From assembly GCA_046565595.1 (NCBI GenBank), contig JBKHYG010000121.1:330-64329 (forward strand): DNA of 64,000 nt, in the 5' to 3' direction. Below, in pieces: positions 10,505 to 64,000 of the stretch; the stretch's first letter is position 1, and every line of letters begins with the position of its first letter. The notes beneath the pieces were generated by a model. The model was not told the origin of the DNA, ran no database searches, and was given only the letters and a program-made list of their open reading frames with translations. Both the position numbers and the translations under genes were made by a program. This DNA is from Actinomycetota bacterium (GTDB taxonomy: Bacteria; Actinomycetota; AC-67).

Positions 10505-10530
10505 AACGCGACCAACAACATCGCGGTTCC
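10505..10530 (-). promoter_or_regulatory. candidate autoregulated ECF promoter (GGAAC-N17-CGTT on the minus strand)
   Basis: The minus strand reads GGAACC (plus 10525-10530), a 17-nt spacer, then CGTT (plus 10505-10508). This sits ~95 bp upstream of the sigma start codon. Confidence 0.4.
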
Positions 10531-10598
10531 TTTTCGCATGTCGGACAAGGTTACGGGCGTGCCCGGTTGCCCGCAATGGCCAAATCGGGATCATTTCT

Positions 10599-41231: not shown

Positions 41232-41530
41232 TCCAGCCCGCACAGTTCTTGGCATTGGCCGCCATGCTCTTCGCGGTCGGTTCGGCTGGCGTGATCCTGC
41301 GTCGGAACCCGCTGGTGATGTTCATGGGGATCGAGCTGATGCTGAACGCGGTCAACCTGACCCTGGTCACCTTCGCCAAGGTGCATGGGACGCTCGACGG
41401 TCAGGTGCTCGCCTTCTTCGTCATCGTCGTCGCTGCTGCCGAGGTGGTTGTCGGACTCGCGATCATCGTGCAGATGTTCCGACGGGTCCGAGGCGCCGAT
41501 GTGGATGATCGGAGTTCGCTCAGATGGTGA
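41228..41530 (+). CDS. nuoK: NADH-quinone oxidoreductase subunit K
   Basis: 100 aa, three transmembrane helices, ND4L-like. Confidence 0.85.
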
Positions 41531-47365: not shown

Positions 47366-48513
47366 TGCGGGTCGCGATCATCGTTCACTCCTACTACCTG
47401 CGAGACACCCGTCCTCGCCGTCACGCCGCCATCCTCTCTCGCGCCGGACACCAGGTCGAGGTCATCTGCGCGCGCGATGTCGACGAATCTGCCTCCGAGG
47501 AGATCGGGGGAGTGAAGATCCGCCGGCTACCTGCTAGACGCAAGCGCGGATCCAAGCTCCGATACATCTTCGAGTATCTCTCCTTCACGCTCATGGCTTC
47601 GCTGGCGCTGCTACGGAGAAGAGGCCGCTACGACGCGATCATCGTGCTCGGCATCCCGAACTTCCTGGTGGCTTCCACGCTCGTCCTGCGACCCCGCAAG
47701 CAGCAGCGTCCGAGGATCCTGCTCGACATGCGTGATCCATTGCCCGAGTTCTTCCAGGCCAAGTATCAGATGCCGGCTGGGTCCCTGGCGCATCGGCTCT
47801 TGCTCGCCGAGGAGCGTTTCTCTTGTCGCCTTGCCGACCAGATCCTGACGGTGGTCGGTTCGATGGCTCGGCTGTATGCGCGCAGTGTCGATCCATCCAA
47901 GATCAAGGTCGCGATGAACGCGCCCGACACGAGGCTCTTCAAGGTGACCGATGTCAGACGGGACCCCTCTGATCGGACCATGCTCTACACCGGCACGGTG
48001 GCAGAACGCTATGGCGTGGATCTGGCGGTTCATGCGGTCGCGCTCCTCAAGGCAGAGATCCCTGGTCTGCGCCTGCGGATCGTCGGGGATGGCGATCTCA
48101 TCGAGGACTGTCGCGCGAAGGCAACATCCCTGGGGGTATCCGACAGGGTCGAGTTCCTCGCCCCGGTGCCGCTGGATCAGGTGCCTGGGCTCATCGCGTC
48201 GGCTTGGATCGGGGTGCAGCCCAACCGTAGCGATGCGCTGATGGATCACAGCCTGTCGACCAAGATCCTCGAGTGGGCGAGCCTCAGGCTGCCCGTCGTG
48301 GCTGGTCGAACCGATGCACTCGAGGCGGTGTTCGGATCGGACTCGATCTGGCTGCACGAACCCGGCGATCTAGAGGACCTGTGCCGCTGTATCCGCGAGG
48401 TCCAGGCCGGCCAAGACACCGCTCGTCGCCTAGAGCTGGCGCAGCAGCGGGCCGAGGCGGTCGACTTCGAGTCACAGGCCAAGGTCCTCCTGGCGGCGGT
48501 CGAGGGGGCGTGA
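47365..48513 (+). CDS. glycosyltransferase family 4 (GT-B fold)
   Basis: GT4-like C-terminal domain. TGATG coupled to the polyprenyl synthase. Confidence 0.7.
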   Translation: MRVAIIVHSYYLRDTRPRRHAAILSRAGHQVEVICARDVDESASEEIGGVKIRRLPARRKRGSKLRYIFEYLSFTLMASLALLRRRGRYDAIIVLGIPNFLVASTLVLRPRKQQRPRILLDMRDPLPEFFQAKYQMPAGSLAHRLLLAEERFSCRLADQILTVVGSMARLYARSVDPSKIKVAMNAPDTRLFKVTDVRRDPSDRTMLYTGTVAERYGVDLAVHAVALLKAEIPGLRLRIVGDGDLIEDCRAKATSLGVSDRVEFLAPVPLDQVPGLIASAWIGVQPNRSDALMDHSLSTKILEWASLRLPVVAGRTDALEAVFGSDSIWLHEPGDLEDLCRCIREVQAGQDTARRLELAQQRAEAVDFESQAKVLLAAVEGA

Positions 48514-48580
48514 TGCTGCAGAAGAGCGTCATCGTCGTTGCTATCCTCGCCGCGGAGGCCGCCCAACGCAGGCGGGACCG

Positions 48581-49408
48581 ATGAGCACCAAGACCGACAG
48601 CGTCGTCATAGAGAACGACTCGAGACTCGCGTCCTATGGGGCCTACATCAACGAGATGTGGGAGCGCAAGGGGCTCGTCCGGGTGCTCGCCAGTCGCGAG
48701 TTGAAGTCGTCCTACGACATGAATGTCGTCGGCTTCATGTGGTGGCTGCTCGAGCCCCTCACCCTGACCGGGGTCTACTTCATCCTCTTCAGTGTGATCT
48801 TCAACAACCGCCGTGAGAACTATCTACTCGTTCTGCTCACGGCTCTGCTGCCCTTCAAGTGGTTCAACCAGACGATCGTCCAGTCCATGGGTACGGTCCG
48901 GTCGCACGCGAGCCTGATAACCGATGTGTACTTCCCGCGGGCTCTACTACCGATGACCGAGACCGTCATCGGGCTCGCGCATTTCTCGGTGGGTCTGTTG
49001 GTCGTTCCGGTGCTCATGATCATCATGGGTGTCCCGGCGACCTGGAACCTGCTCGCGCTGCCCGGGATCATGTTGGTTCAGTTGATCTTCGGCCTCGGCC
49101 TCGCCTATCCGATGTCGGTCCTCGGCTTGAACTACCGCAACCTGCCGAACCTCATGGGCAACATCCTGAGGCTGTGGTTCTATCTCTCTCCAGCGATCTG
49201 GAGCATCGAGAGGGTGCCCGAGAGGTACCACTGGCTGGTCAGTCTCAATCCCTTGAGCGGGCTCTTCCAGGGATATCACTCGGCGATCCTGGGTGATCCA
49301 TGGCGGGTCTGGGATCTGATGTGGACCCTCACGCTGGGCACCGTGCTGCTGATCGGCGGCACCTATTACTTCACGCGCCGAGAAGCGCAGTTCGGGAAGA
49401 TGTTGTGA
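48581..49408 (+). CDS. ABC-2 type polysaccharide/teichoic acid export permease (Wzm/TagG-like)
   Basis: 275 aa with six transmembrane helices in an ABC-2 exporter layout. Confidence 0.8.
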   Translation: MSTKTDSVVIENDSRLASYGAYINEMWERKGLVRVLASRELKSSYDMNVVGFMWWLLEPLTLTGVYFILFSVIFNNRRENYLLVLLTALLPFKWFNQTIVQSMGTVRSHASLITDVYFPRALLPMTETVIGLAHFSVGLLVVPVLMIIMGVPATWNLLALPGIMLVQLIFGLGLAYPMSVLGLNYRNLPNLMGNILRLWFYLSPAIWSIERVPERYHWLVSLNPLSGLFQGYHSAILGDPWRVWDLMWTLTLGTVLLIGGTYYFTRREAQFGKML

Positions 49409-50298
49409 GCAACGAGTTTGCGATCCAAGCGCGCGATGTCGGCGTCCGGTTCTTCATCCGCCATCACACCCCGACGGTCCACTCGGGCCTGGTGCGGTTC
49501 ATGAAGGGGAAGGTCAAGCCTGACGAGTTCTGGGCGTTGCGACACATCGACTTCGACATCCCGAGGGGGAGCGTCTTCGGATTCATCGGGGCGAACGGAT
49601 CTGGCAAGTCGACCATGCTGCGTACCATCGCGCGCATCTACCATCCCGACGAAGGATCCCTGAAGGTCCGTGGCAAGATCTCGAACCTGATCTCGCTGGG
49701 GGCAGGTTTCCAGAAGACGCTGTCTGGCATGGAGAACATCACCTTCAACGGCATGTTGCTCGGACTGTCGCGCCAAGAGATCGAGCGCAAGAAGGAAGCG
49801 ATCATAGAGTTCGCGGACATCGGGAAGTTCATCCACGCCCCCGTCCGAACCTATTCGAGCGGTATGCGAGCACGGCTGGGTTTCGCTATCGCGGTCCATG
49901 TCGATCCCGAGATCCTGGTCGTGGACGAGGTGTTGGTCGTCGGCGACGCGCAGTTCCGTCAGAAGTGTTCGGACAAGATCCGCGAGTTGTTCACCAACGG
50001 TGCGACGGTCGTCATGGTCCAGCACAACATGGATGTCATCGTCGACATGTGCCAGCAGGTCATGTGGCTGGACAAGGGCAAGGCCCGGATGCTCGGAGAC
50101 CCGGAGACCGTCGCCAACGAGTACCTCGCAAGCAAGGGCCTACCACCTCTCGAGCCAAAGGCCGCTGACGCCGCTGATCCAAAGGCCGCCGGCGGCGCTG
50201 GCCCTAGGGACGCGGGTGGCGCGGGCCCTAAGGACGCGGGTGGCGACGGTAACGCAACCGAGGGCGACGGCCCCAGGGTTCAGGCCAAGCGTTCGTAG
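49405..50298 (+). CDS. ABC transporter ATP-binding protein (Wzt/TagH-like) with a low-complexity C-terminal tail
   Basis: Walker A GANGSGKST, signature SSGMRARL, Walker B ILVVDE. GTG start overlaps the permease stop as GTGA. Confidence 0.8.
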   Translation: MSNEFAIQARDVGVRFFIRHHTPTVHSGLVRFMKGKVKPDEFWALRHIDFDIPRGSVFGFIGANGSGKSTMLRTIARIYHPDEGSLKVRGKISNLISLGAGFQKTLSGMENITFNGMLLGLSRQEIERKKEAIIEFADIGKFIHAPVRTYSSGMRARLGFAIAVHVDPEILVVDEVLVVGDAQFRQKCSDKIRELFTNGATVVMVQHNMDVIVDMCQQVMWLDKGKARMLGDPETVANEYLASKGLPPLEPKAADAADPKAAGGAGPRDAGGAGPKDAGGDGNATEGDGPRVQAKRS

Positions 50299-51494
50299 AC
50301 ACCCAGGAGTTCCTTCGCCTGGCCGTCCCAGGTGAAGTTGCCAGCCAGCTTCGAACTTCGCTCTTTCAGTGGCCCCAGGTCGGCACCGATCAATCGCGCC
50401 AGAGCCTGCTTCATGTCGCTCGCGTCGCCAGGCCTGAACACCTCACCCAGCTTCTCTCCGCGGACGATCCTCGCGATATCAGGCAGGTCCGATGCGCAGA
50501 TCGCGAGGCCGGCATGCATGTACTCGAAGAGCTTGTTCGGTGCGGCGAGCTCGTTGTTCAAACCCACCGGTTCGTAGCTGACGATCCCGATGTCCGCAGC
50601 CGCCGCGGCGTTCACTACCCCGTCGGGTTCCACCGAGCCTGCGAAGACCACACGGTCGCCGGCAGGTTGAGCGAGTTGACGGAGCTGGTCCTCGATCGGG
50701 CCCCAACCCAGCATCACCAGCCTGGCTCCGGTCAGATCAGCCATCGCCGATACGAGGGCCTCGAGTCCACGGTTCGGAGTGAAGCCTCCCGCATAGATGA
50801 GCAGCCGTTCGTCGCCTCGGCGAAGCTCGACGATCCGGGGATCGGGCTGGATCTGCGCGGGCGGATCGGGACAGTTCATGACCACCGTCGGCTCTGGGAT
50901 ACCGTAACGCTCGACGAGTATCTGTCCCCTGGCGGCTGTTGGCACGATCGTCGCCTGGGCGTGCGAGATGTACCTGGCTTCCACCGCTCGCCAAGCGCGC
51001 CGTTCGAGTTTCGTCAGGCCGGTGAGATCGGGATACAACTCATGAGCGTCGTACACCAGGTGCGCTCGCGAATGATTCGCGACGGCAGCGCCAGCGGCCA
51101 GGGTGTTCAGGTCGTGGGCATGCACCAGTTCCGGCATCGGCAATCGGCTGGCCGCGCGGACGAACGCCCTATCCAGCCAGAGATCCCTCGCCAGGATGCC
51201 GGTAGCGATCAGTCCGCGAGGCGGTCTGATCCCTATCCGGCTGTGGCCATCGGCTTCGCCCGCGCTCGAGGCAGATGCCCTTCCAGCCGTGCCCGTGATG
51301 GTGGGTCCCGCCCAACGACCCGTCCGGACTCCTCTCACCACTCGGATCCGATCTACCAGATCGTCCTTCGGAAGGTCTCCCGCTTGCAGGCAGAGGATCG
51401 TCACTTCATGGCCGGCTTGTATAGCGCTCCTTGCCTCCCGCAAGACGCGAGCGTCCCGGGTGAAGGGGTTGCGAAGCAGCATCAGGACGCGCAC
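50280..51494 (-). CDS. glycosyltransferase family 4
   Basis: 404 aa. GT-B fold with an EX7E-like C-terminal region. Confidence 0.7.
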   Translation of the reverse strand: MRVLMLLRNPFTRDARVLREARSAIQAGHEVTILCLQAGDLPKDDLVDRIRVVRGVRTGRWAGPTITGTAGRASASSAGEADGHSRIGIRPPRGLIATGILARDLWLDRAFVRAASRLPMPELVHAHDLNTLAAGAAVANHSRAHLVYDAHELYPDLTGLTKLERRAWRAVEARYISHAQATIVPTAARGQILVERYGIPEPTVVMNCPDPPAQIQPDPRIVELRRGDERLLIYAGGFTPNRGLEALVSAMADLTGARLVMLGWGPIEDQLRQLAQPAGDRVVFAGSVEPDGVVNAAAAADIGIVSYEPVGLNNELAAPNKLFEYMHAGLAICASDLPDIARIVRGEKLGEVFRPGDASDMKQALARLIGADLGPLKERSSKLAGNFTWDGQAKELLGVYERLA

Positions 51495-51532
51495 TCCTTC
51501 AGCCTACGCAGACCGGAGGCCCGCGAAGCCCG

Positions 51533-54500
51533 GTGATAGCCTCGCTGCATCTCATGACGGACGCCAACCCCGCCGACCTTGACGCCATCGGCGTCCTACG
51601 ACGCACCCGCGACACGCTAACTCTTCGAGCCGAGATCGAAGAGGCCCGTGCGCGCGCCGCCAACGAGCGGCTCCAGATGTTCGGCAAGAGCATCTGGGGA
51701 TTGCTGGGGATCATCTTGTCGGCTGGATGGAAGCGTCCCTGGAAGCTGCCGAAACTCTTCTATCTGCTAGCCCGTACGCGCTTCGCTGGCCCGAAGCGCC
51801 GCCGCGCCTTCTCCGAGGCACGGCGTTGCTTCGAGGATCGACGATACGAGGATGCGCTCGCGAGGTGTGACGAGATCCTTCGAGACAACCCCGCGGACCT
51901 TCCGGTGTTGCGCTTCAAGCGAGAGATCCTCGGCAAGATGGGTGACCTCTCAGGCATGCTCGCCACCGTTCGGCAGGCGCGCGCACTGGGCGAACTCGAG
52001 AGCCTGCGTCGGTCAGAACGCGTGCTCGAGAGCCGCCTGAAGGAACTCGATCCCACCTGGCTGCCGCCGATCCCGGGTCGTCCCGAGCGGTACGAGGCCG
52101 TTCCCGGCCGGGTCTTGCATCTGCTGAAGAACTCGATGCCCCAACACACCTCGGGGTACACCGCTCGTAGCCGTTACACGATGCTCGCCCAACGCGGCGC
52201 TGGGCTCGATCCGGTCGTGGTCACATCCTTGGGCCAGCCGAGGCTCGACGGGCTGACCGACTTCCCGCTCGTCGAGGCGGTCGATGGGATCGAACACCAC
52301 CGACTCGACCTCGGGGACCTGCCCTACCTGGGTCTGCCCCCTCACGAATATCTCGAGCTGTTCGCTTGGACCGCGGCCGAGAAGGTCCGGGCGTTGAAGC
52401 CGGCCGTCATCCACGCCCGCTCTGGCTTCCGCGGCTACGAGATACCGCTGGTCGGCTTGGCACTGTCGAGGCACTTCGGGATCCCTCTGGTCTACGAGGC
52501 TTCGATGTTCCTCGAGGGAACCTGGACCGACGATGTCGAGTGGATGGAGCGGGGCGAGCTCTATCGCTTACGCACCGAACAAGAGAACCGGTGCATGCGT
52601 GAGGCCGACCATGTCGTGACGATCGCCGAAAGCATGAAGCAAGAGATCGTGGGTCGCGGGATCCCCAGTGACCATGTCACGGTCATCCCGAACGGTGTCG
52701 ATCCAGAGAGGTTCCAACCCCGTCCCAAGGACCCTGAACTCCTGCGATCACTCGGCCTAGAGGATCGAGTGGTGCTCGGCTACATCTCTAACATCGGTTA
52801 CCGGGAAGGCCTCGACATCATGGTGCGAGGCCTGGCTGAACTGATCTCTCGCGGAGAGGATGTCGGCGGCCTGATCGTCGGAGACGGTCCGCAGTTACCC
52901 GCCCTGCGTGAACTCGCCGAGGAGTTAGGTATCACCGATCGTGTGGCGATCACGGGACCGGTCTCGCATGAGGTTGTCGCGGACTACTACGCGGCGATCG
53001 ACCTGTTCGTGATCCCTCGCCGCGATGAGCGCGCCGCGAGGCTCGTGACGCCGTTGAAGCCGTACGAGGCGATGGCTCTCGGCAAGCCGCTACTGGTTGC
53101 AGGTTTGCCGGCGCTCCTGGAGGTTGCGGAGCCGCCCCTCCGCGGAGCCGCGTTCACTCCGGAAGATCCGATCTCGATGGCGGACGCCGCCACGCCACTG
53201 ATCCGCGATCATGCCGAACGCGAACGCCTGGGGGAAGAGGCTAGACGCTGGGTCCTGTCCGAGAGGACCTGGGACAGGGTCGGTCCGATGTATAGGGATG
53301 TCTATGCGCGAGCATCCGAGGTGGCCGCTAGCCGGAGTACGCCGGTTGGCGATCCGGCGCCGGCGGCACTAGGAGAGGCGGAAGCCTTACGCGTCGAGAT
53401 CGAGCAACTCGGGACCCGGATCGCCAAGGCCCGTTCCAGGGCTGCGGCCACAGAAGAGAAGTATTGGAACGATCCGATGCGCAAGGTTCGAAAGGGGGTC
53501 CGCGAGGTCTTGAAGGCGTCCGGTCCGATCGGAAAACTGAAGCAGTTGGTGCGCGTGGCGAGACGGTGGAGAGCAGCCCGGCTGGAAACGCCTGACCGTT
53601 TCCCGCCGCAGAGGATCGTCGCGCGCAAGACGCAAGCCCTGCCGAGCCTCGCCTCGGAGGGAAGCGAAGGGTCTCTGCTCGAACTCGCCAGGACCGCTCT
53701 TGCCACGCTACCCAAGGGAGGCGACCGGCCTCCGGGCATCCTCTTGTACGCGCCACTGGTCCGCAACAACCCGTTCCAGGCTCTGCTGTACAGCGCATGT
53801 TGGGAGTCCGGGATCGCGCCGCTGCCGCTGACCGATCTGGATGTCGCTGACGAGGCCAAGGCGCTGCCTGGTCTCGGCGTCGAGACCTGGTTCCACATCC
53901 ACTGGACCGGTCAGGTGCTGCAAGGTGCGACATCCAAGTCGGACGCGGCCGAGAGACTGAAGGCCTTCACCGAACGGCTGGAGGGGCTCGTGCACGCGGG
54001 TGTGCGGATCGCTTACACGGTCCACAATGCCTTGCCTCACGAACACGAGTTCCCAGCTCTGGAAGCAGGCGTGGTCAAGGCGATCTTGGATCGCGCCAGC
54101 CTCGTTCACTGCCTGACCGAGGATGCCCCCGATCTGGTGAAGCCGACCATCGATCTGCCCTCAGACAAGATCGAGGTCATCCCTCATCCCTCGTACATCG
54201 GCGTCTACCCCGAGCATCTCTCCAAACTGCAGGCTCGTTTCGAACTCGGGCTCACAGACGATGATCTGGTCGTAGCCACGCTCGGAGGCATCCGGGCCTA
54301 TAAGGGCATCGGCCCGCTCCTGGAAGCCTTCGAACAAGCTGCCGAGCAAGAGCCACGCCTCCGTCTGATCGTCGCAGGCAAACCGATCGCTTTCCCAGAG
54401 GCCAAGGCGCTGCGCGGACGCTGCGAAGGCGATGATCGGATCATCTCCTTCTTCGGACGGGTCCCCGAGGATCAACTGCAGCGCTACGCGAAGGCCGCAG

Positions 54501-54793
54501 ACGCCATCGTGCTAGCCCACGATGCCGTGTTGAACTCTGGCGTACTGCCGCTGTCGCTGACCTTCGGCCGCCCTGTGATCGCTGCCAAGCGCGGGGCGCT
54601 TGAGCGGCTGGTGACCTCTGACATCGGGATCACCTACGACCCCGACGAGCCGGGTGGCCTGAAGCGCGCCCTCTTACAGGTTAAGGATCTGCGAGATCCG
54701 AACTACGAGGCGGCAGCTAGGAAGCGGGCGGAAGAGATCGCGCCCGACCGGATCGCTGCCTCGTTCGCGGAAGCCTTGCGCCGCCGCTACTGA
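51533..54793 (+). CDS. large multidomain glycosyltransferase: N-terminal amphipathic/TPR-like region, GT4 domain, coiled-coil spacer, second GT-B domain
   Basis: 1086 aa. First GT4 domain at ~aa 190-600. Predicted coiled coil at ~aa 600-680. Second GT-B domain at ~aa 700-1086. The true start may lie downstream of 51533, because only 38 bp separate it from the divergent gene. Confidence 0.6.
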   Translation: MIASLHLMTDANPADLDAIGVLRRTRDTLTLRAEIEEARARAANERLQMFGKSIWGLLGIILSAGWKRPWKLPKLFYLLARTRFAGPKRRRAFSEARRCFEDRRYEDALARCDEILRDNPADLPVLRFKREILGKMGDLSGMLATVRQARALGELESLRRSERVLESRLKELDPTWLPPIPGRPERYEAVPGRVLHLLKNSMPQHTSGYTARSRYTMLAQRGAGLDPVVVTSLGQPRLDGLTDFPLVEAVDGIEHHRLDLGDLPYLGLPPHEYLELFAWTAAEKVRALKPAVIHARSGFRGYEIPLVGLALSRHFGIPLVYEASMFLEGTWTDDVEWMERGELYRLRTEQENRCMREADHVVTIAESMKQEIVGRGIPSDHVTVIPNGVDPERFQPRPKDPELLRSLGLEDRVVLGYISNIGYREGLDIMVRGLAELISRGEDVGGLIVGDGPQLPALRELAEELGITDRVAITGPVSHEVVADYYAAIDLFVIPRRDERAARLVTPLKPYEAMALGKPLLVAGLPALLEVAEPPLRGAAFTPEDPISMADAATPLIRDHAERERLGEEARRWVLSERTWDRVGPMYRDVYARASEVAASRSTPVGDPAPAALGEAEALRVEIEQLGTRIAKARSRAAATEEKYWNDPMRKVRKGVREVLKASGPIGKLKQLVRVARRWRAARLETPDRFPPQRIVARKTQALPSLASEGSEGSLLELARTALATLPKGGDRPPGILLYAPLVRNNPFQALLYSACWESGIAPLPLTDLDVADEAKALPGLGVETWFHIHWTGQVLQGATSKSDAAERLKAFTERLEGLVHAGVRIAYTVHNALPHEHEFPALEAGVVKAILDRASLVHCLTEDAPDLVKPTIDLPSDKIEVIPHPSYIGVYPEHLSKLQARFELGLTDDDLVVATLGGIRAYKGIGPLLEAFEQAAEQEPRLRLIVAGKPIAFPEAKALRGRCEGDDRIISFFGRVPEDQLQRYAKAADAIVLAHDAVLNSGVLPLSLTFGRPVIAAKRGALERLVTSDIGITYDPDEPGGLKRALLQVKDLRDPNYEAAARKRAEEIAPDRIAASFAEALRRRY

Positions 54794-55905
54794 GCGGCAA
54801 GCGTCGTTGAGACGACCTCGGCGATCCGCTCACCGGCCCGGCCATCCCACAGCGGAGGCCGCTTGGGATCAGGTGATCGACCCGCGCGGATCGCATCTGC
54901 GCCTTCCTTGCGGATCGTCTCTGGGTCGGGGCCGATCAGACGGTTGGTCCCCATGGAGCAGGTGATCGGCCTCTCGGTGTTCCAACGCAGCGTCAGACAA
55001 GGCACGCCCAGGACCGTGGTCTCCTCTTGTATGCCTCCCGAGTCGGTGAGTACCACCCTCGCATCGGCCATCAACTTGAGGAAATCCAGATAGCCGACGG
55101 GTTCTATGACGCTGACCCGTCCGCTGACCACATGACCAGAGCGCAGATCGACCAGATGGTCCAAACCGAAGGACGCCATCATCTTCACCGTGCGCGGATG
55201 AGCCGGGAACAGGATGGGCACTTCGCGAGCAAGATCAGCAAGGGCTTCGAGGATGCCCTTCAGCGTCTCTGGATCATCGACATTGGACGGGCGATGCAGG
55301 GTCACGAGCCCGTAGGCGTGGGGATCAGCCCCCAGGTTGCTGACGATGTTCGAGGAGTTGGCACGATCCAGATGCCTGAGCAGCGAATCGATCATCGGGT
55401 TGCCTACGAAGTGCACCCGCTCCTTTGCGACACCCTCGGCGACGAGGTTGTCCAAGGCTTCCGGGGAGGTCGTGAACAGCAGATCCGAGATCTGGTCGGT
55501 GAGTACCCGGTTGATCTCTTCTGGCATCTCTCGGTCGAAGGAGCGTAAGCCTGCCTCGACATGTGCGATCGGCAGCCGCTCCTTGGCGCACACCAACGCG
55601 GCTGCGATCGTCGAGTTCACATCACCTACGACGATGGTCAGGTCGGGGCGATGCTCGAGTAGCACCGGCTCTATGGTCTCCATGATCCGGGCGGTCTGAT
55701 ACGCATGGCTCCCGCTGCCGACCTCTAGATGGTGATCTGGCTCGGGCAGATCCAGATCGTCGAAGAAGGCTTGAGACATCTTGTGGTCGTAATGCTGGCC
55801 CGTGTGAACCAGGATGTTGGAGGCGCCACGCTCCTTCAGGGCTCGAAGGACCGGAGCGACCTTCATGAAGTTCGGGCGTGCTCCGGCGACATGTAGAACC
55901 TTCAC
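54787..55905 (-). CDS. wecB: UDP-N-acetylglucosamine 2-epimerase (non-hydrolysing)
   Basis: N-terminus MKVLHVAGARPNFMK..HTGQHYD and overall WecB/MnaA architecture. Confidence 0.85.
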   Translation of the reverse strand: MKVLHVAGARPNFMKVAPVLRALKERGASNILVHTGQHYDHKMSQAFFDDLDLPEPDHHLEVGSGSHAYQTARIMETIEPVLLEHRPDLTIVVGDVNSTIAAALVCAKERLPIAHVEAGLRSFDREMPEEINRVLTDQISDLLFTTSPEALDNLVAEGVAKERVHFVGNPMIDSLLRHLDRANSSNIVSNLGADPHAYGLVTLHRPSNVDDPETLKGILEALADLAREVPILFPAHPRTVKMMASFGLDHLVDLRSGHVVSGRVSVIEPVGYLDFLKLMADARVVLTDSGGIQEETTVLGVPCLTLRWNTERPITCSMGTNRLIGPDPETIRKEGADAIRAGRSPDPKRPPLWDGRAGERIAEVVSTTLAAQ

Positions 55906-56001
55906 GATGCTTCGAGTACCTCCGATGGGCCTGCCTCGCCCTGCGCTAGTGTTCGAGCGAGTCTACGAGCCGCACGGTGCGGCCCGTCCCGGAGGCTGTA
56001 G

Positions 56002-57306
56002 GTGACCGTCGAAGCGCTCCTTTCCCGTCTAGAGAACTCCCAGAGCAAGGCTGCGGTGCTGGGCCTGGGCTATGTCGGCTTGCCTCTGGTGATCAGCCTC
56101 GCCCGCACCGGCGTGCCGGTGATCGGTTTCGATGTGAAGCCCGATGTCGCGAGCCGCCTGGGCAGAGGTGTCAGTCACATCGACGATGTCTCCGATGCCG
56201 ACCTCGCCGAGGTCTCCGCGCTGACCCGGTTCACCGCCGACATCCAAGACATCGAGGTTGCCGATGTCATCTTCATCTGCGTTCCGACCCCGCTCGCCGT
56301 CGGGAAGCAGCCGGATGTGTCCTACATAGAGCGCGCCGCCCACCTGATCGCGACGGTCATGAGGCCAGGCCAACTCGTGATCCTCGAGTCGACGACATAT
56401 CCCGGCACGACCGACGACGCCGTGCTACCGATCCTCGAAGGATCGGGCCTGAAACTCGATAAGGATTTCCTGCTCGCCTATTCGCCCGAGCGCGTGGATC
56501 CAGGCAACAGCTCGTTCCACACGATGAACATCCCGCGCGTCGTCGGTGGCGTGACACCCCTATCGACCCGGGCTGCAGAGCTCATCTACTCGAGGATCGT
56601 GCCGAAGATCTTCACCGTCAGCAGCGCGCGCACCGCCGAGATGGCCAAACTGCTCGAGAACACCTTCCGGTGGGTCAACATAGCTCTCGTCAACGAGTTG
56701 ACCTTCGTCGCGCGAGCGATCGGCGTCGACATCTACGAGGTCATCGACGCGGCGGCGACCAAGCCGTTCGGCTTCATGCCCTTCTATCCCGGCCCCGGTG
56801 TGGGCGGACACTGCATCCCACTCGACCCGTTCTACCTGCAGTGGGTGGCCAAGGTCACCGGCGAGGGGACGCGCTTCGTCGAACTTGCCGAGTCGGTCAA
56901 CTCCTCGATGCCGCGCGTGGTGGTCGACCGTGTGACGGAAGCTCTGAACGACAGGAGCAGATCGGTACGCGGCTCGAACATCCTGGTTCTGGGGGTCGCC
57001 TACAAGCCGGATGTGAGCGATCAGCGCGAGTCGCCTGCGGCCGCCTGCATCTTGAGGCTCCAGAAGCTCGGCGCGCGCGTCACATACTCAGATCCGCACG
57101 CACCCACCTACCGAGAGCACGGTGTCGATCTGGCCTCCGTCGAACTGAGCGAAGAGGCCATCCGGGGGGCGGACTGCGTCCTGGTGCTCACCGATCACTC
57201 GGCTTTCGACTACGACATGGTCCTGGCGACTGCAGACCTGATCGTCGATACCCGGAACGCCTTCGGTCGTCGTGGTCTACGCGACGACAAGATATCCACC
57301 CTGTAA
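56002..57306 (+). CDS. wecC: UDP-N-acetyl-D-mannosamine dehydrogenase / nucleotide-sugar dehydrogenase
   Basis: GTG start after a GGAGG Shine-Dalgarno. NAD-binding GLGYVGLPL and catalytic-Cys region GGHCIPLDP. Confidence 0.8.
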   Translation: MTVEALLSRLENSQSKAAVLGLGYVGLPLVISLARTGVPVIGFDVKPDVASRLGRGVSHIDDVSDADLAEVSALTRFTADIQDIEVADVIFICVPTPLAVGKQPDVSYIERAAHLIATVMRPGQLVILESTTYPGTTDDAVLPILEGSGLKLDKDFLLAYSPERVDPGNSSFHTMNIPRVVGGVTPLSTRAAELIYSRIVPKIFTVSSARTAEMAKLLENTFRWVNIALVNELTFVARAIGVDIYEVIDAAATKPFGFMPFYPGPGVGGHCIPLDPFYLQWVAKVTGEGTRFVELAESVNSSMPRVVVDRVTEALNDRSRSVRGSNILVLGVAYKPDVSDQRESPAAACILRLQKLGARVTYSDPHAPTYREHGVDLASVELSEEAIRGADCVLVLTDHSAFDYDMVLATADLIVDTRNAFGRRGLRDDKISTL

Positions 57307-57430
57307 CCGCACTATTTCGCCCCGCTTTGGGCTGATTCGTAGTGGTTGCGTATCCGGTGTGGTCCCTGTGAACTACCGGAGGTCCTTGACCTGCTTCCGC
57401 ATGTCCTTAAGCATCAGTCTCCCTCCCCGT

Positions 57431-60325
57431 ATGCGACGCGCCGCTGCATGTGTCGTGGCGGCGGCGTTAACGCTCACGCTGCCGGCCGTGGCTGCGCGCG
57501 CACAGACCCCGCTCCCGCCTGACGCCGTCCTCACGATCCCCGGTCATGGTTGGGGCCACGGCCGGGGGATGGGCCAGTGGGGAGCCAAGGGCATGGCCGA
57601 CCAGGGTAAGAACTACCGAGAGATCCTGTCCTACTACTACTCCTCGGTCGAGTTCGGAGACAGAGGCGATGAGTGGTTGCGGGTGCTGGTGGAAGCGTCT
57701 CCCGATGTCGTCATCACGAGCGAGTCGAGCTTCAAGATCAGTTACTCAGACGGCGAGGTCTTAGCGACATCTGGCGATGCGAAGCCCTTCTGGCGTGTCA
57801 TCTACACCGGGGGCGCGCATCGCGCTCAGCGATCCGAAGCCTGGAACGGCCCCTGGGAGACCGTCGCCACCGATACCCGGTACATGATCTTCGCGCCGCA
57901 GGGCTCATTGCTCGAGGTCGTCTTCGGCAACGGAACCGTGCGGCGCTATCGGGGGAACATCATCGCCCGCTACGCGAGTGTCGATGGTATGCGCACGATA
58001 AACAGCCTCCGGATGGAGGACTATCTGCGCGGCGTCGTGCCTCGCGAATCTCCCTCGGGTTGGCCGGCAGAACAGTTGAAGTCTCAAGCGGTCGCTGCAC
58101 GCACCTATGCGTACCGCAAGCGCGACGACTCGAGATCGCGCGGCAACACCTTCGACATCTGTGCGACTACCGCGTGTCAGGTCTACGGAGGCGCAGGCCA
58201 ACGCTCCCGCCCCGGCGGGGCCATCAGCAGCCTCGAGGCATCCTCAACCGACGGGGCGCTCTCGGCGACGAAGGGGACCGTCCTGAACTACGCCGGAAAG
58301 GCCATCCTGGCGGAGTATTCGAGCAGCACGGGTGGCTACACAGCCCCTGGCTCGGTCCCATATCAGAAGGCGGTCCCTGACCCGACCGATGCCGTGAGCC
58401 CACACCATGAGTGGACCGCGAAGGTATCGGTCCGCGAGATCGAGTCCACCTGGCCCGCCATCGGTCGCCTGGTCCGCATCGAGGTGACCGAACGCAACGG
58501 CTTCGGCGAGTGGGGTGGCCGCGTGAAGCGTCTGAGGATCGTCGGGTCGTCGAAGACGATCGAGATCTCTGGGGACGCCTTCCGAGGAGCCTTCGCCTGG
58601 CCTTCCAAGTCCGACGGCCTCCGTTCGAGTTGGTTCACGATCGGCTACTGGGCTTCCGAACGGGTCCTCACCCCCGGCTCGACGACCATCCCGAGAGGCC
58701 AATCGAAACAACTGACCTACCGGTTCCGCAACCTCGGCACCGAGCCGTGGCCGGTCGGCGGGACGGTCGGCTTCTCCACCGATGCCGGAAGCAGCCTGCA
58801 AGCCGCCTCCTGGCCGTCACCGACCCGCCCCGCCTGGATCTCTCGCAATGTGACCCGCCCCGCCGCATCGAGCATCGCCGAGGGGGAGGTAGCCGAACTG
58901 ATCGTCGCGCTCGACACATCGTCTGCCCCGGTGGGCAGCGTGACCCTGCCCCTACGGCTAGAGGTCGAGGGCGGCACGCGGCTGGATGCGATCAACCTGA
59001 AGGTAGATGTCGTGCCGTCCTGGTTCGAGTTGGCTCCCAACATCCTGTCGAACGGTTCCTTCGAGAAGGGACTCTGGGCTTGGAGCGCTGACCGTGCTTC
59101 GCTCGTCGATGGCCGTGACCTGACCCGAGGCGTGTCAATGCAGCCCGGAGGCTCGATCACCCAGACCGTGAACCTGGCTGGCGGTTCCGGGCGTCGTTTC
59201 ATGTGGGGAGCCTGGACGAGCGCGGACCAGGGCGCAGACCTCGAGGTCAAGGTGCTTGTGACCTTCGCGGACGGACGCAGCTACATCAAGCGTCTCGCCG
59301 TACCGGGTGGTCCTCACGACTGGACATACACCGAGCAGGGGTTCCGGACCGCTGCGGACCGGCAGGTATCGAACATCCGTTTCGAGGCCAGGTCCGTCGG
59401 GGGATCTGCCCGCCTGGACGCTGTCAGACTGATCGAGGATCCGGTCGCCAACTCGAGCTTCGAGCAGGACGAGCTGACCGCCTGGTCGATCCCTTTGGCT
59501 CCTGCGGACGCGCCGTTCGCGCGCACCGCGACTTGGACCGCCTCCGACGGAGATCAGGCCCTGATCATCCCCGGTCGGGTCGAACCGATCCTCGTCGAAC
59601 AGCGGTTCGCTCTGGACGCTCCGGCATGGGAACGCTACTCGTGGCGCTTCAGCCATCGGTCCTACCAGTCCACGGCGGGCCAGGGATCGTGGCTGGCTTC
59701 GCTGACACTCGTGCATCCCGACGGCACCGAGACCGTCTCGGAGATCCCGATAGACACAGCGCAACATCCTTGGGAGAGCGCGCGGGCCGAGCTGGTGGCT
59801 CGAAAACCGGTCACCGAAGGGATCCTCCGATTCCGGGCCGAGGGCCAGACGGGCTCTCTCTATATGGATCAGATCCGAGTCTTCCGCTCGAGGGTCAGCG
59901 ACGCCAGTTTCGAGGCAGGTGACCTGTCGGCGTGGAACACCGGCGGTCTCCAACCAGACGACCAGGTCGCCACTTGGGCCGCTCGGGACGGCGACCTGGG
60001 CCTGCGCCTGACCGGGCCGGCCAGATCCTTCGTCACCCAGAACCTCGTCCTGCGGGGCACCCCCAGCCGGACCTTCCGTCTGGCAGCCTGGAACAATTCC
60101 AGCAGGGCCAGATCGGGCCGCGTGGATGTGGCGGTGACCTTCTTCCACACCGACGGCACCCGTTCAGCGCAGGTGTTGGACTTCACAGGGCCAGATCACG
60201 CCTGGACCTACCGCGAGATCCGCATCAGCTCGGCCAAGCGCTTCGACGGCGTCCGGGTGGCTGTGATGCTGGACGGCCCATCTGGCTGGACGAGTTTCGA
60301 CTCGATACGGCTGATCGACGCCTAG
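57431..60325 (+). CDS. secreted SpoIID/LytB-domain protein with three tandem CBM4_9-like modules
   Basis: Signal peptide MRRAAACVVAAALTLTLPAVAARA. SpoIID hallmark GHGWGHGRGMGQWGA. Three ~140-aa repeats begin NGSFEKGLWAW, NSSFEQDELTAW and DASFEAGDLSAW. Start chosen at ATG 57431; an in-frame ATG at 57401 is an alternative. Confidence 0.7.
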   Translation: MRRAAACVVAAALTLTLPAVAARAQTPLPPDAVLTIPGHGWGHGRGMGQWGAKGMADQGKNYREILSYYYSSVEFGDRGDEWLRVLVEASPDVVITSESSFKISYSDGEVLATSGDAKPFWRVIYTGGAHRAQRSEAWNGPWETVATDTRYMIFAPQGSLLEVVFGNGTVRRYRGNIIARYASVDGMRTINSLRMEDYLRGVVPRESPSGWPAEQLKSQAVAARTYAYRKRDDSRSRGNTFDICATTACQVYGGAGQRSRPGGAISSLEASSTDGALSATKGTVLNYAGKAILAEYSSSTGGYTAPGSVPYQKAVPDPTDAVSPHHEWTAKVSVREIESTWPAIGRLVRIEVTERNGFGEWGGRVKRLRIVGSSKTIEISGDAFRGAFAWPSKSDGLRSSWFTIGYWASERVLTPGSTTIPRGQSKQLTYRFRNLGTEPWPVGGTVGFSTDAGSSLQAASWPSPTRPAWISRNVTRPAASSIAEGEVAELIVALDTSSAPVGSVTLPLRLEVEGGTRLDAINLKVDVVPSWFELAPNILSNGSFEKGLWAWSADRASLVDGRDLTRGVSMQPGGSITQTVNLAGGSGRRFMWGAWTSADQGADLEVKVLVTFADGRSYIKRLAVPGGPHDWTYTEQGFRTAADRQVSNIRFEARSVGGSARLDAVRLIEDPVANSSFEQDELTAWSIPLAPADAPFARTATWTASDGDQALIIPGRVEPILVEQRFALDAPAWERYSWRFSHRSYQSTAGQGSWLASLTLVHPDGTETVSEIPIDTAQHPWESARAELVARKPVTEGILRFRAEGQTGSLYMDQIRVFRSRVSDASFEAGDLSAWNTGGLQPDDQVATWAARDGDLGLRLTGPARSFVTQNLVLRGTPSRTFRLAAWNNSSRARSGRVDVAVTFFHTDGTRSAQVLDFTGPDHAWTYREIRISSAKRFDGVRVAVMLDGPSGWTSFDSIRLIDA

Positions 60326-60353: not shown

Positions 60354-60478
60354 ATGCCTGATGCGCCGCTTTGAAGAGCGCCCGGAATGCTGGGTTATGA
60401 TGCCGCGCGCCGTGGGGAGATCCGCGGTCCGCGCCGGTGCGCGCGGCGACGCAAGGCGACCGGGGGGCGCCAACGGCA

Positions 60479-60850
60479 GTGACCGACTACTTCTGGCAGT
60501 ACGGAACCCTTGGGGCTCTCGCGGTCCTCGCGGTCGGGTTCGTCGCGGTCGGATTCACGGTCAACCGCATCATGAGGCCCAAGAAGCCTCGCCCCGAGAA
60601 GCTCACGACCTACGAGTGTGGCGTGGATCCCGTCGGTGACGGTTGGTCTCAGACGCAGATCCGTTACTACGTCTTCGCCTTCCTGTTCGTGATCTTCGAT
60701 GTTGAAAGCGTCTTCCTGTTCCCGTTCGCGACCATCTTCGAGACCTTCCCGAACCCCGGTCTCGTGTTGGTCGAGATGATCATCTTCATCCTCATCCTGG
60801 CGGTCGGCCTGCTGTATGCATGGCGCCGCCGCGTCCTCGAGTGGCTCTGA
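60479..60850 (+). CDS. nuoA: NADH-quinone oxidoreductase subunit A, second paralog
   Basis: Start uncertain. GTG 60479 aligns with the N-terminus of the first NuoA (VTDYFWQYG against TLVDYLPIL); GTG 60437 is an alternative. ECG motif and three transmembrane helices present. Confidence 0.7.
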
Positions 60851-60851
60851 C

Positions 60852-61397
60852 ATGGGTCTGATCGACAAGGTCGATTTCCCGCAACCGGCGAAGTTCATCT
60901 TCAACTGGGGCCGGCGGTATTCCCTTTGGGTCATGAACTTCGGCCTGGCTTGCTGTGCGATCGAACTGATCGCGGCTTCCACCAGTCGTCATGACTTCAT
61001 CCGCCTGGGCGTCATCCCCGTGGCGCATGGTCCCCGCCAGGCGGACCTGCTGGTCGTGGCTGGCACGCTGACCGACAAGATGGCTCCTGCCCTGAAGCGC
61101 GTCTATGAGCAGATCCCCGAGCCCAAGTATGTGATCAGTTTCGGCTCCTGCTCCAACTGCGGGGGTCCCTTCTGGGACTCGTATTCGGTCACCAAGGGGG
61201 TCGACCAGATCGTTCCCGTGGATGTCTATGTACCGGGTTGCCCTCCGCGTCCCGAGGCCCTGCTCGAAGGCATCCTGCTGCTGCAAGACCGCATCAAGGA
61301 CGAGTCCTTGAAGGAACGCTTCGAGCGGCGCGCCGCGACCGAACCGATCGTGGTCGGTGGCGGCTCCATCAACGACACGAGCATCGACGACGGATGA
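60852..61397 (+). CDS. nuoB: NADH-quinone oxidoreductase subunit B, second paralog
   Basis: N2 ligand motifs [20 protein letters not shown]. Confidence 0.85.
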
Positions 61398-61879
61398 ACG
61401 CTTCCGAACTAGCCACCTACATCACCGGCCAGACCGACGCGGTCTCCCGGCACGAGGAATCGTGCGGGCAACTGTCGATCTGGGTAGACCCCTCGCGCTG
61501 GGTCGACGTCGCGACGCTCCTGCGGGACGACCCGCGATTGCACTTCGACTTCGTGACCTTCCTGACCGCTGTGGATCTTGAGACCGACGGCTTCGAGATC
61601 GTGGCGAACCTCTACTCTGTGCGTCGCATCCACCGTGTGCTGCTGAAGACGATCGTCGGTCGCGAGGCACCGCGCTTGCCGACCCTTTCTCAGGTCTGGA
61701 AGGGCATGAACTGGTGTGAGCGTGAGACATGGGAGCAGTTCGGGATCCAGTTCGACGGACACCCGAACCTCGTGAAACTGCTGCTTCCGGTCGAGTTCGA
61801 CGGCTATCCGCTCCGTAAGGACTTCCTGCTCATGACCCGCGAGGCCAAGGAATGGCCGGGGGAGAAGGAGCCGGCATGA
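61394..61879 (+). CDS. nuoC: NADH-quinone oxidoreductase subunit C, second paralog
   Basis: ATGA coupled. 161 aa, 30-kDa subunit family. Confidence 0.8.
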
Positions 61880-63057
61880 GCATGGACACCTCTGAACTCG
61901 GCATGCTCCCTGGCGGTCCAGGCGAAGGCGTGCAGGTGATCATCGCCGGCGATGACGACTTCGCGACACAAGAGATGACGCTGTCCATCGGGCCGCAGCA
62001 CCCTGCGACCCACGGGGTCCTGCGTGTCGTGCTGACCCTCGACGGAGAGGTCATCAAGGAAGCCGTGCCCGTCATCGGCTACATGCACCGCGGGTTCGAC
62101 AAACTTGCCGAGGTCCGCGACTACCGCCAGATCATCGCGCTCAGCAATCGCCACGACTGGCTCTCGGCGTTCGGGAACGAGGTCGGCGTCGCGCTGGCGG
62201 TCGAACGCCTGATGGACCTCGAGGTTCCCGATCGGGCGCAGTGGATCAGGATGCTGTTCTGCGAGTGGAACCGGATCCTGAATCACCTGATGTTCATCGG
62301 CTCCTTCGGGCTCGAGCTCGGAGCGATGACGCCGATCTTCCTGGCTTTCCGTGAACGCGAACAGATCCAGGCACTCCTCGAGATGGCAACCGGCGCGCGG
62401 ATGCACTACACCTACTGCCGCGTCGGCGGGCTGAAGGAAGATCTTCCTCGCGGGTTCCTCAAGCGGTCCGAGCAGATGGTCAAGACGATCCGTAGCCGCC
62501 TGGTCGATTACGAAGGTCTGCTGCTCGGGAACGAGATATTCAAGAAGCGCACCGTAGGTATCGGCGCCCTGGCGCCCGAGATCGCCAAGGCCTACGGCGT
62601 GACGGGTCCGATCCTTCAGGCCACCGGCGTCGCAGAGGACTCACGCAAGACCGACCCATATCTCAAGTACGACCAGATCGACTTCGAGGTTCCGGTCGGA
62701 GACAACGGCGACTCGTTCGATCGGTTCTTCGTGCTGTACCGCCGCGTCCAGGAATCGCTGAAGATCATCGAGCAGATCCACGACAAGATCCCTGCCGGCC
62801 CGATCATGCCGGGCAAGATGCCGAAGAACCTCAAGCCGCCGGAAGGTTGGGTCTATCAGCGCACCGAGAACTCGCTCGGCGAGACCGGCTACTACCTGGT
62901 CAGCCGCGGCGAGAAGGAGCCATGGCGCTTCAAGATGCGCACACCCAGCTTCCACAATGTTTCGATGATCCCCGAACTACTCGAGGGCATCCTGTTGCCC
63001 GACCTGATCAGTGTGTTGGGTAGCGTCTTCTATGTCGTGGGGGATGTCGACAGGTGA
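61876..63057 (+). CDS. nuoD: NADH-quinone oxidoreductase subunit D, second paralog
   Basis: ATGA coupled. 49-kDa subunit motif LSIGPQHPATHGVLRVVL. Confidence 0.85.
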   Translation: MSMDTSELGMLPGGPGEGVQVIIAGDDDFATQEMTLSIGPQHPATHGVLRVVLTLDGEVIKEAVPVIGYMHRGFDKLAEVRDYRQIIALSNRHDWLSAFGNEVGVALAVERLMDLEVPDRAQWIRMLFCEWNRILNHLMFIGSFGLELGAMTPIFLAFREREQIQALLEMATGARMHYTYCRVGGLKEDLPRGFLKRSEQMVKTIRSRLVDYEGLLLGNEIFKKRTVGIGALAPEIAKAYGVTGPILQATGVAEDSRKTDPYLKYDQIDFEVPVGDNGDSFDRFFVLYRRVQESLKIIEQIHDKIPAGPIMPGKMPKNLKPPEGWVYQRTENSLGETGYYLVSRGEKEPWRFKMRTPSFHNVSMIPELLEGILLPDLISVLGSVFYVVGDVDR

Positions 63058-64000
63058 TCTTCGAGCACTTCTTCGACAACGCTTGGGTCGTGCTCGGCCT
63101 CAAGTTGGGCGCGGTCTTCGGCTTCTTCCTGACCGCGCCGTTGATCATCGGTTACGCCGAGCACAAGGTCCTGGCGCACATGCAGTCACGGCTTGGTCCG
63201 ATGGAGGCGGGCAAGTTCCACGGTTGGGCACAGCTGATAGCCGATGGCGTGAAGTTCGTCCAGAAGGAAGACATCATCCCGGCGGCCGCTGACCGCAAGG
63301 TCTTCGCCTTCGCGCCGGCGGTCGCGCTCCTTCCGGTGATGCTGACCTTCCTGGTGCTGCCCTTCGGCCCCGGTCCCGCAGGCAACGAAGCCGCGGGGTA
63401 CTGGGGCGAGAACCTGGATCTGTCCCTGTTCTTCGTGCTAGCCATCAGCGCGGTCGGAGTCATCGGGATGCTCATGGCCGGATGGTCCAGCGCCAACAAG
63501 TATTCGCTGATCGGCGCCCTGCGTGGAGCTGCGCAGCTGATCGCATACGAGCTTCCTCTGGTCCTGGCAGCTGCCGCGGTCGCGATGATGGCCGGAAGCG
63601 TGTCTCTGGTCGAGATCGCCGCCGCGCAAGAGAACACCCTTTGGTTCGTGGTTCCCCAGTTCGCCGGTTTCGCCATCTTCGTGATGGCATCGCTCGCCGA
63701 ACTCTCCCGCCCTCCCTTCGATATGCCGATCGCCGATTCCGAGATCATCTTCGGTCACATGACCGAGTACACCGGCCTGCGGTTCGCGTTGTTCCTGCTC
63801 GCCGAGTACGCAGGCATCGTCGCGCTCTCGGCGGTTGCGGTCGTGCTGTACCTGGGCGGCTGGAACGGCATCTTCGGTCTTCCCATCCCCGCTCCGCTAT
63901 GGACGCTGGCCAAGATCGGCGCGCTTAGCTTCTTCGTCATCTGGTTGCGGGCGACCATGCCGCGTCTCCGCGAGGACCAGTTGCAGAAGCTCGCATGGAA
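63054..64000 (+). CDS. nuoH: NADH-quinone oxidoreductase subunit H, second paralog (3'-truncated at the window edge)
   Basis: Absent from the ORF track because no stop is reached. GTG 63054 overlaps the nuoD2 stop as GTGA. The translation is unambiguously NuoH-like (GYAEHKVLAHMQSRLGPMEAGKFHGWAQLIADGVKF). Confidence 0.85.
   Translation, partial: MIFEHFFDNAWVVLGLKLGAVFGFFLTAPLIIGYAEHKVLAHMQSRLGPMEAGKFHGWAQLIADGVKFVQKEDIIPAAADRKVFAFAPAVALLPVMLTFLVLPFGPGPAGNEAAGYWGENLDLSLFFVLAISAVGVIGMLMAGWSSANKYSLIGALRGAAQLIAYELPLVLAAAAVAMMAGSVSLVEIAAAQENTLWFVVPQFAGFAIFVMASLAELSRPPFDMPIADSEIIFGHMTEYTGLRFALFLLAEYAGIVALSAVAVVLYLGGWNGIFGLPIPAPLWTLAKIGALSFFVIWLRATMPRLREDQLQKLAW

Follow-up and report, generated by a model that had tools for sequence, protein, structure and literature searches.

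A gene at positions 57431-60325 (+ strand) of a 64,000-nt stretch of Actinomycetota DNA, here called the window and used for all numbering, encodes a 964-residue protein that is probably a secreted, wall-anchored enzyme cleaving the glycan strands of peptidoglycan. It combines a circularly permuted SpoIID/LytB domain with an immunoglobulin-like (Ig-like) domain and three jelly-roll modules resembling carbohydrate-binding modules (CBM) of family 16. By homology, the SpoIID/LytB module is expected to be a lytic transglycosylase or muramidase that cleaves MurNAc-GlcNAc strands. An amidase would most probably denude or loosen these strands first, in the manner of the SpoIIP/SpoIID and LytC/LytB pairs, and the Ig spacer and the three CBM16-like modules would anchor the enzyme to wall glycan. 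The protein is identical to the NCBI entry MFP5225793.1, named 'MAG: SpoIID/LytB domain-containing protein [Actinomycetota bacterium]'. A preliminary description of this DNA had proposed an amidase-activating SpoIID/LytB domain fused to three CBM4_9-like modules; it overlooked the permutation, the Ig-like domain before the repeats and the swapping of the C-terminal module in relatives.

A circular permutant of the SpoIID/LytB domain

The SpoIID motif noticed in the preliminary description is supported by profile, sequence and structure searches. The catalytic core (residues ~171-404; 57941-58642, + strand) exceeds the cut-offs of the Pfam model PF08486 (SpoIID; 87.3 bits against 23, residues 185-287) and of TIGR02669 (181.1 bits against 83.3, residues 189-391), and PF08486 also matches each of the 51 full-length homologues used as the conservation set. 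The solved SpoIID proteins (4RWR, 5I1T, 5TXU) match at E 1e-22 to 1e-23. A Foldseek search with an AlphaFold2 (AF2) model of the N-terminal module found a single significant match in the PDB, SpoIID 5i1t_A (E 2.3e-7), with a moderate sequential template-modelling score (TM) of 0.56 that would fit a permuted element. The equivalog model for the sporulation protein itself, TIGR02870 (spore_II_D), is matched at 133.9 bits, below its cut-off of 234.75, and this score rules out a sporulation SpoIID orthologue. A match to the NCBIfam model NTTRR-F1 (20.8 bits against a cut-off of 70) was disregarded.

The SpoIID structures align with this protein as two pieces whose order is swapped. Query residues 177/187-337 pair with SpoIID chain residues 50/60-217, and query residues 35-81 pair with residues 277-323 of 331 in the Bacillus anthracis protein (4RWR) and with 314-350 of 354 in that of Clostridioides difficile (5TXU). 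The GHGxGMxQxGA segment, which forms the C-terminal ~50 residues of canonical SpoIID, is thus N-terminal here: the motif GHGWGHGRGMGQWGA stands at residues 38-52, straight after a signal-peptide-like N-terminus, in a permuted segment (residues 31-81, GHGWGHGRGMGQWGA...ILSYYY; 57521-57673, + strand) that is supported by PDB alignment, a re-ordering test and conservation. The 'N-terminal hallmark' of the preliminary description is therefore present, but its N-terminal position is not the canonical one and results from circular permutation.

In the re-ordering test, the native mature sequence matched TIGR02669 in two stretches, the better of which covers positions 2-191/194 of the 270 in the model. 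When residues 31-81 were placed behind residue 404, a single stretch ran from position 2 to 268, and the re-ordered sequence also matched TIGR02870 in one stretch (positions 67-334 of 338). Because re-ordering turns two partial matches into one end-to-end TIGR02669 match, the SpoIID/LytB domain is, on this evidence from sequence, a circular permutant and not a canonical family member. A second GHG motif was found in none of the 120 best homologues. The permutation also explains why domain models cover these proteins only in part.

Between the permuted segment and the core lies a beta-rich domain (residues ~82-170; 57674-57940, + strand) of about 8 predicted beta-strands, modelled at a block-mean predicted local distance difference test score (pLDDT) of 95-98. 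None of the Pfam and NCBIfam models covers this domain, and Pfam is blank over residues 1-186. The AF2 model of residues 25-408, built with 23 sequences, has a pLDDT of 89.5 and a predicted TM (pTM) of 0.80; block means over residues 25-74, in the region of the permuted segment, are 72-95.

In C. difficile SpoIID, E101 is the catalytic residue and C140, C146, H134 and H145 are Zn ligands (PMC6221140). In the alignment with 5TXU, E206 lies opposite E101, C244 opposite C140 and C249 opposite C146. All three residues are invariant in the 51 homologues, as are G38, G40, G42, H43, G46, Q49 and G51 of the permuted segment. We infer from this conservation a catalytically competent core, in which the cysteine pair C244/C249 may form a disulfide instead of a Zn site.

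An Ig-like domain and three CBM16-like repeats

The C-terminal half consists of an Ig-like domain and three repeats, all on the + strand. The preliminary description had recognized three tandem repeats of ~140 residues, and these exist, but they span about 430 residues and not ~600, as residues ~408-532 (58652-59026) form a separate Ig-like beta-sandwich linker. This linker resembles the NBR1-type domain of PF16158 (N_BRCA1_IG) weakly, at 17.3-20.8 bits and below the cut-off of 28; ten of the 51 homologues match the same model at E <= 1e-3, the best at 6e-8. Its AF2 model is all-beta, with block-mean pLDDT of 79-97 as far as residue ~524 and of 61 where it joins the first repeat, and hhalign shows no relationship between the domain and the repeats. 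The most fitting label for it is 'Ig-like, possibly NBR1-type'.

The repeats are R1 (residues 533-669; 59027-59437), R2 (670-818; 59438-59884), which is the most divergent copy, and R3 (819-964 with the stop codon; 59885-60325), which is the copy nearest to CBM16. Their openings (NGSFEKGLWAW in R1, NSSFEQDELTAW in R2 and DASFEAGDLSAW in R3) are related as the preliminary description had it, although its consensus N/S-x-SFE-x-G-x-W is only approximate in R2 and R3. Aligned, the repeats share S-F-E, W, D-G, Q, H-x-W and D-x-I/V-R. Self-BLASTP of the whole protein did not detect internal repeats, and alignment and profile comparison were needed: profiles of R1, R2 and R3 built from the 51 homologues match one another over their full length with 100% probability and E 3e-42 to 8e-47 (R2 to R1 3e-42, R2 to R3 8e-47). 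Residues F677, W685, H779, W781 and D813 of R2 are invariant in these homologues.

The repeats are of CBM_4_9/CBM16 type at the level of sequence, profile and fold. CBM_4_9 is the Pfam family PF02018, which covers the CAZy families CBM4, 9, 16 and 22 and has a cut-off of 25.9 bits. The whole protein scores 34.4 bits, so that SpoIID and CBM_4_9 are both above threshold in Pfam, and 20 of the 51 homologues match PF02018 at E <= 1e-3 (best 1e-17). The comparison that comes closest is with ManA of Caldanaerobius polysaccharolyticus, whose CBM16-1 and CBM16-2 (2ZEW, 2ZEX, 2ZEY, 2ZEZ, 3OEA, 3OEB) belong to the same sequence family and share the jelly-roll fold. R3 alone finds CBM16-1 with phmmer (2zey/2zex/3oeb; E 3.8e-6), and the family profile of R3 gives full-length matches to CBM16-1 (E 6.5e-13, 52 bits) and CBM16-2 (E 4.7e-9). 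In the AF2 model of residues 405-964 (pLDDT 90.8, all-beta; R1 block means mostly 84-97) the repeats are jelly rolls, and Foldseek superposes them on CBM16-1 with TM 0.80-0.83, an rmsd of 2.5 A and 25% identity; tandem CBM22 (4xup) and a multi-jelly-roll GH101 protein are matched as well. The CBM4_9-like assignment of the preliminary description thus stands, and its worry that the repeats might prove to be Big or FN3 domains did not materialize, as they score as CBM_4_9. In ManA, the modules are attached to a glycoside hydrolase and the PDB entries show them bound to cello- and mannopentaose, whereas their partner here is a predicted peptidoglycan enzyme.

Distribution and exchange of the C-terminal region

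The full architecture is found in about 55 cluster representatives at 32-71% identity, all from uncultured Actinomycetota except one labelled Acidobacteria. A scan of species-representative genomes gave at least 556 candidate loci that encode a relative, and the 80 best were inspected. In nearly all of these 80, the match is collinear, starting in the N-terminal motif region (in a few, just past the motif) and extending through the core; almost all of the 80 come from Actinomycetota, including Acidimicrobiia. The best identity among the species representatives is just 52-53%; therefore, the lineage of the window is missing from them.

Relatives retain the signal peptide and the permuted module and exchange the C-terminal region at the same boundary. 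The position of the Ig-like domain and the CBM-like modules is taken by SLH domains in three proteins (P0061, P0064, P0067), by FG-GAP/VCBS-like 'GDWDGDG' repeats in P0058 and P0063 and also in Modestobacter, Geodermatophilus, Blastococcus, Jatrophihabitans and Georgenia, and by multiple NBR1-like Ig domains in metagenome-assembled genomes (MAGs) of Frankiales and Mycobacteriales. Across these sequences, the C-terminal region acts like an interchangeable cassette for wall targeting. Because SLH, FG-GAP/VCBS-like or Ig domains replace the Ig and CBM-like modules at one boundary, these modules are predicted to have a wall-targeting role.

The jelly-roll module itself is widespread. A word-indexed search with the C-terminal 432 residues gave one match and was uninformative; an exhaustive search of the representative proteins with the R3 profile matched 3181 proteins at E <= 1e-3, 870 of them at E <= 1e-10. 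The module occurs in 1-7 copies per protein and is often C-terminal. Its partners elsewhere include M4 thermolysin-like peptidase, NHL/SBBP beta-propellers, plastocyanin-like domains, RCC1, GEVED/Big and SLH proteins (examples are P0145, P0148, P0156, P0158, P0136 and P0134/P0135). Recurrence of the module in the products of neighboring genes was considered and rejected: in the window and 88 loci it is present only in the SpoIID proteins, always in three copies.

Coupling to Amidase_2 in other Actinomycetota

Among other Actinomycetota, the permuted module is coupled to an Amidase_2 domain in 27 of the 80 inspected loci (L005-L084). The two are fused in 6 loci, and the amidase gene immediately precedes the SpoIID gene on the same strand in 18 (e.g., in Modestobacter, Geodermatophilus and Blastococcus) and immediately follows it in 3. 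Aeromicrobium terrae encodes an Amidase_2-LGFP-SpoIID fusion (L056, 8351-11116), and Aeromicrobium sp. PE09-221 an Amidase_2-6xFN3-SpoIID fusion (L015, 7043-11101). In Modestobacter marinus (L054), the amidase reading frame (7936-9930) overlaps the start of the SpoIID gene (9923-11833); an upstream amidase gene with such a translational overlap also occurs in Geodermatophilus and Blastococcus. The Aeromicrobium fusions and the Geodermatophilaceae pairs (L054, L040, L023) have the same permuted module, collinear and at 35-40% identity; unlike the protein of the window, they have an amidase fused or adjacent, and their accessory repeats are LGFP, FN3 or FG-GAP-like and not CBM16-like. The pairing appears to be the equivalent, in actinobacteria, of SpoIIP/SpoIID or LytC/LytB.

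Association with wall-glycopolymer genes

In the window, the gene adjoins a wall-glycopolymer cluster (47329-57306, mixed strands) recognized with Pfam and NCBIfam models. Its + strand genes encode a GT4 glycosyltransferase (47329-48513), an ABC-2 permease (48581-49408), a TagH/Wzt-like ATPase (49300-50298), a 1086-residue GT4 protein (51533-54793) and an NDP-sugar dehydrogenase (56002-57306) most similar to UDP-ManNAc dehydrogenase; a second GT4 (50280-51494) and WecB (54787-55905), which scores above the equivalog cut-off, are on the - strand. In the 1086-residue protein, the recognized GT4 domain occupies only residues ~193-594, and a weak second glycosyltransferase-like match lies at 850-1029; the first ~190 residues and a large part of the last ~490 have no domain assignment.

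A cluster of this kind (WecB, NDP-sugar dehydrogenase, GT4, TagGH-like ABC exporter and sometimes LCP) accompanies the gene in 11 of the 12 annotated contexts of the clade. In L001 (55% identity), WecB and the dehydrogenase precede the gene, and WecC is directly upstream in L005 and L007. More distant CBM-type relatives (L085 and L089-L092), which are not flanked by the nuo operons described below, are still within glycan clusters: L085 has WecB, dehydrogenase, GT4, LCP and several CW_binding_2 proteins; L089 has GT4, GT2, PMT_2 and dehydrogenase; L090 has GT4 and PMT_2; L091 has WecB, GT4 and dehydrogenase within 8 kb; and L092 has GT4, an ABC exporter and LCP. Glycan clusters also surround L087, the SLH variant, and L088, the VCBS variant. 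An LCP (LytR-CpsA-Psr) ligase gene lies a few kb from the SpoIID gene in L085 (15579-22946), L087 (15689-17038) and L092 (11645-12991), and ~3 kb upstream in Geodermatophilaceae and Jatrophihabitans loci.

Function and alternative explanations

The protein is read as a glycan-strand-cleaving enzyme that would cooperate with an amidase because of its conserved core with the catalytic Glu, the amidase pairing in relatives and the documented role of SpoIID-domain proteins (PMC6221140, PMC6635528). SpoIID-domain proteins cleave glycan strands in non-sporulating bacteria too: the homologue of Waddlia chondrophila (Chlamydiales) binds peptidoglycan and cleaves its glycan strands as a lytic transglycosylase/muramidase (PMC6635528). 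That protein is from a different phylum and is septal and periplasmic, and neither CBM-like modules nor a permutation has been reported for it. With the SpoIID of Bacillus and Clostridioides, a sporulation lytic transglycosylase, the protein shares a homologous core, the catalytic Glu and the GHGxGMSQxGA...YY segment. It differs in being permuted, in its extra beta-rich domain, Ig domain and three CBM-like modules, and in having a cleavable-looking signal peptide, whereas SpoIID is membrane-anchored; it is also not a sporulation gene by TIGR02870.

Judged by architecture, the closest known analogue is LytB (CwbA) of Bacillus subtilis. The wall-binding repeats of LytB are of CWB2 type and N-terminal, and the order within its SpoIID/LytB-type domain is taken as canonical; these repeats reportedly resemble those of the LytC autolysin (Kuroda et al. 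1992, cited in PMC10653849), whereas the protein of the window has C-terminal CBM16-like jelly rolls instead. In B. subtilis 168, lytABC neighbors tagU (lytR) and mnaA among the genes for teichoic and teichuronic acids, in parallel to the WecB/LCP/ABC-exporter neighborhood seen here. LytB is a vegetative, secreted modifier of the LytC amidase, in which a SpoIID/LytB-type domain is joined to the wall-binding repeats (PMC10653849 and references therein).

Several observations weigh against a catalytic, polymer-targeted enzyme, and some of them suit other roles. LytB stimulates lytic amidases and is reported as not hydrolysing peptidoglycan itself (PMC10653849). The Zn-ligand histidines of C. difficile SpoIID are replaced here (H134 by G238 and H145 by A248), which leaves half of a Zn site that is required for in vitro activity (PMC6221140) absent. 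If the fused or adjacent Amidase_2 domains of relatives are added, these points fit a wall-binding, non-catalytic enhancer of a separate N-acetylmuramoyl-L-alanine amidase, on the model of LytB/CwbA; we consider this role unlikely. The catalytic Glu and the GHG residues are invariant in the 51 homologues, the SpoIID of B. anthracis itself lacks the Zn-site cysteines, and both SpoIID (PMC6221140) and the chlamydial homologue (PMC6635528) are active enzymes. Enhancement and catalysis moreover coexist in SpoIID. The term 'amidase-activator' used in the preliminary description describes LytB; what is kept of it is the probable cooperation with an amidase, and the conserved catalytic Glu favors cleavage of glycan strands. 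In the window's own clade, none of the loci has an adjacent amidase gene, which also counts against a glycan-strand-cleaving enzyme that works with such a partner.

The jelly rolls may bear on function in a different way. Taken one by one, the repeats are at or below the Pfam cut-off (R1 25.0 bits over model positions 2-131 of 136, R3 16.7 bits, R2 without a match), and the top Foldseek matches of the jelly roll include non-lectin toxin domains of the Cry1/Cry8 protoxin and Vip3. Some fusion partners of the module (e.g., NHL/SBBP propellers, RCC1 and M4 peptidase) have no relation to glycan metabolism, and the most conserved repeat residues (F-E early, D late, H-x-W) seem to resemble framework positions. 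Such features would be expected of spacers or of protein-protein or adhesion modules that bind no carbohydrate and owe their likeness to CBM_4_9 to a shared fold or framework, a possibility that appears doubtful. The family profile matches a biochemically characterized CBM16 over its full length at high significance, the fold match is close, relatives have proven wall-binding SLH domains in the same position, and the gene is located in glycan clusters. The Ig spacer and the jelly rolls would rather tether the enzyme to a glycan of the wall, which would be peptidoglycan or the secondary polymer of the neighboring cluster. The proposal of the preliminary description, in which the modules direct the enzyme to the latter polymer, is a reasonable one, and synteny now supports it. 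Two observations limit this link: one of the 12 clade contexts (L086, CBM-type, 32% identity) is not near glycan genes, and adjacency to WecB/WecC as a family-wide trait had to be rejected, being confined to the window's clade and lacking in the wider family.

That the substrate is the secondary wall polymer of the adjacent cluster, to be trimmed or released, and not peptidoglycan is very improbable: the gene does lie tightly and repeatedly inside variable wall-glycopolymer clusters and its clade is without the adjacent amidase, but all characterized SpoIID-family enzymes act on MurNAc-GlcNAc strands (PMC6635528, PMC6221140), the core is highly conserved while the gene content of the neighboring clusters differs, and relatives are fused to peptidoglycan amidases.

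Relation to known peptidoglycan enzymes

The peptidoglycan hydrolases of Actinomycetota beyond mycobacteria and Streptomyces are, to our knowledge, poorly known. The literature searched contained nothing on actinobacterial SpoIID/LytB proteins, circular permutation of SpoIID or fusions of SpoIID to CBM modules, and it seems that no SpoIID/LytB-type protein from Actinomycetota has been studied. The protein itself is already public under a correct generic name, and the precomputed Pfam annotation of several homologues lists SpoIID and CBM_4_9. What appears to be undescribed in this literature is the permutation with its wide spread in Actinomycetota, the pairing with Amidase_2 and the variant with three CBM16-like modules in wall-glycopolymer loci. 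The analysis thus points to a known kind of enzyme in an altered form, and it reveals no new kind of system.

The permutation defines a large clade of at least 556 loci, which includes the cultivable genera Modestobacter, Geodermatophilus, Blastococcus, Aeromicrobium, Georgenia and Cellulomonas, and the couplings to Amidase_2 and to wall polymers lead to testable hypotheses on the targeting of autolysins and on the coordination of strand cleavage with amidases and secondary polymers. A bolder proposal, which we regard as speculative and on balance unlikely, is that the permuted module forms the core of an undescribed, Actinomycetota-wide system of glycan-strand cleavage. In the uncultured clade of the window, this system would have been recruited to a wall-glycopolymer locus, with the three CBM16-like modules reading a lineage-specific polymer that contains ManNAc/ManNAcA and is exported by a TagGH-like transporter. 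If this were true, peptidoglycan cutting would be spatially coupled to the sites of export or attachment of the secondary polymer, and autolysis guided by wall polymers would have evolved separately from the CWB2, SLH and choline-binding systems.

Gene start, signal peptide and flanking operons

The gene is a single open reading frame on the + strand, whose longest reading extends from a GTG at 57272 to the stop codon at 60323-60325. Its start codon is ambiguous from the sequence and could be ATG 57401 or ATG 57431. The former lies 17 nt after a GGAGG (57379-57383); the latter, the annotated start that gives the 964-residue form, has no obvious ribosome-binding site. Both yield an N-terminus that resembles a signal peptide. 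In the annotated form, residues 1-24 (57431-57502, + strand; MRRAAACVVAAALTLTLPAVAARA, followed by QT) have a basic n-region, a hydrophobic core and an A-R-A site, and the region reads as a Sec signal peptide. A lipoprotein signal was judged unlikely, as Cys7 is too near the N-terminus, and so was a Tat signal, as an S/T-RRxFLK motif is absent. A scan for promoters and terminators around the gene gave nothing beyond the expectation from shuffled sequence. The G+C content is 61-66% across the window and shows no break at the gene.

The gene closes a block that lies between two nuo operons, in the order nuoN, polyprenyl synthase, glycan genes, SpoIID-CBM gene and then nuoA-B-C-D-H. The same placement occurs in L002 (42% identity) and L003/4 (40%), with different intervening glycan genes; in L001, nuoA follows the gene and the contig ends before any upstream nuo operon. 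The genes between the nuo operons vary between relatives, like a variable surface-polysaccharide island. The upstream operon (33475-46385) encodes NuoD, F, G, H, L and N and is of the 14-subunit type. The downstream operon (60437-63998) has the order A-B-C-D-H, E/F/G being absent between D and H, and in L001 it continues with I-J-K-L-M-N. A long-chain polyprenyl diphosphate synthase gene (46232-47365, + strand) directly follows nuoN, likewise in L002 and L003; its product may serve quinone or carrier-lipid supply, outside the glycan cluster. A gene for a geranylgeranyl-reductase-like FAD protein (30582-31898, + strand) lies ~1.6 kb upstream of the NuoD gene (33475).

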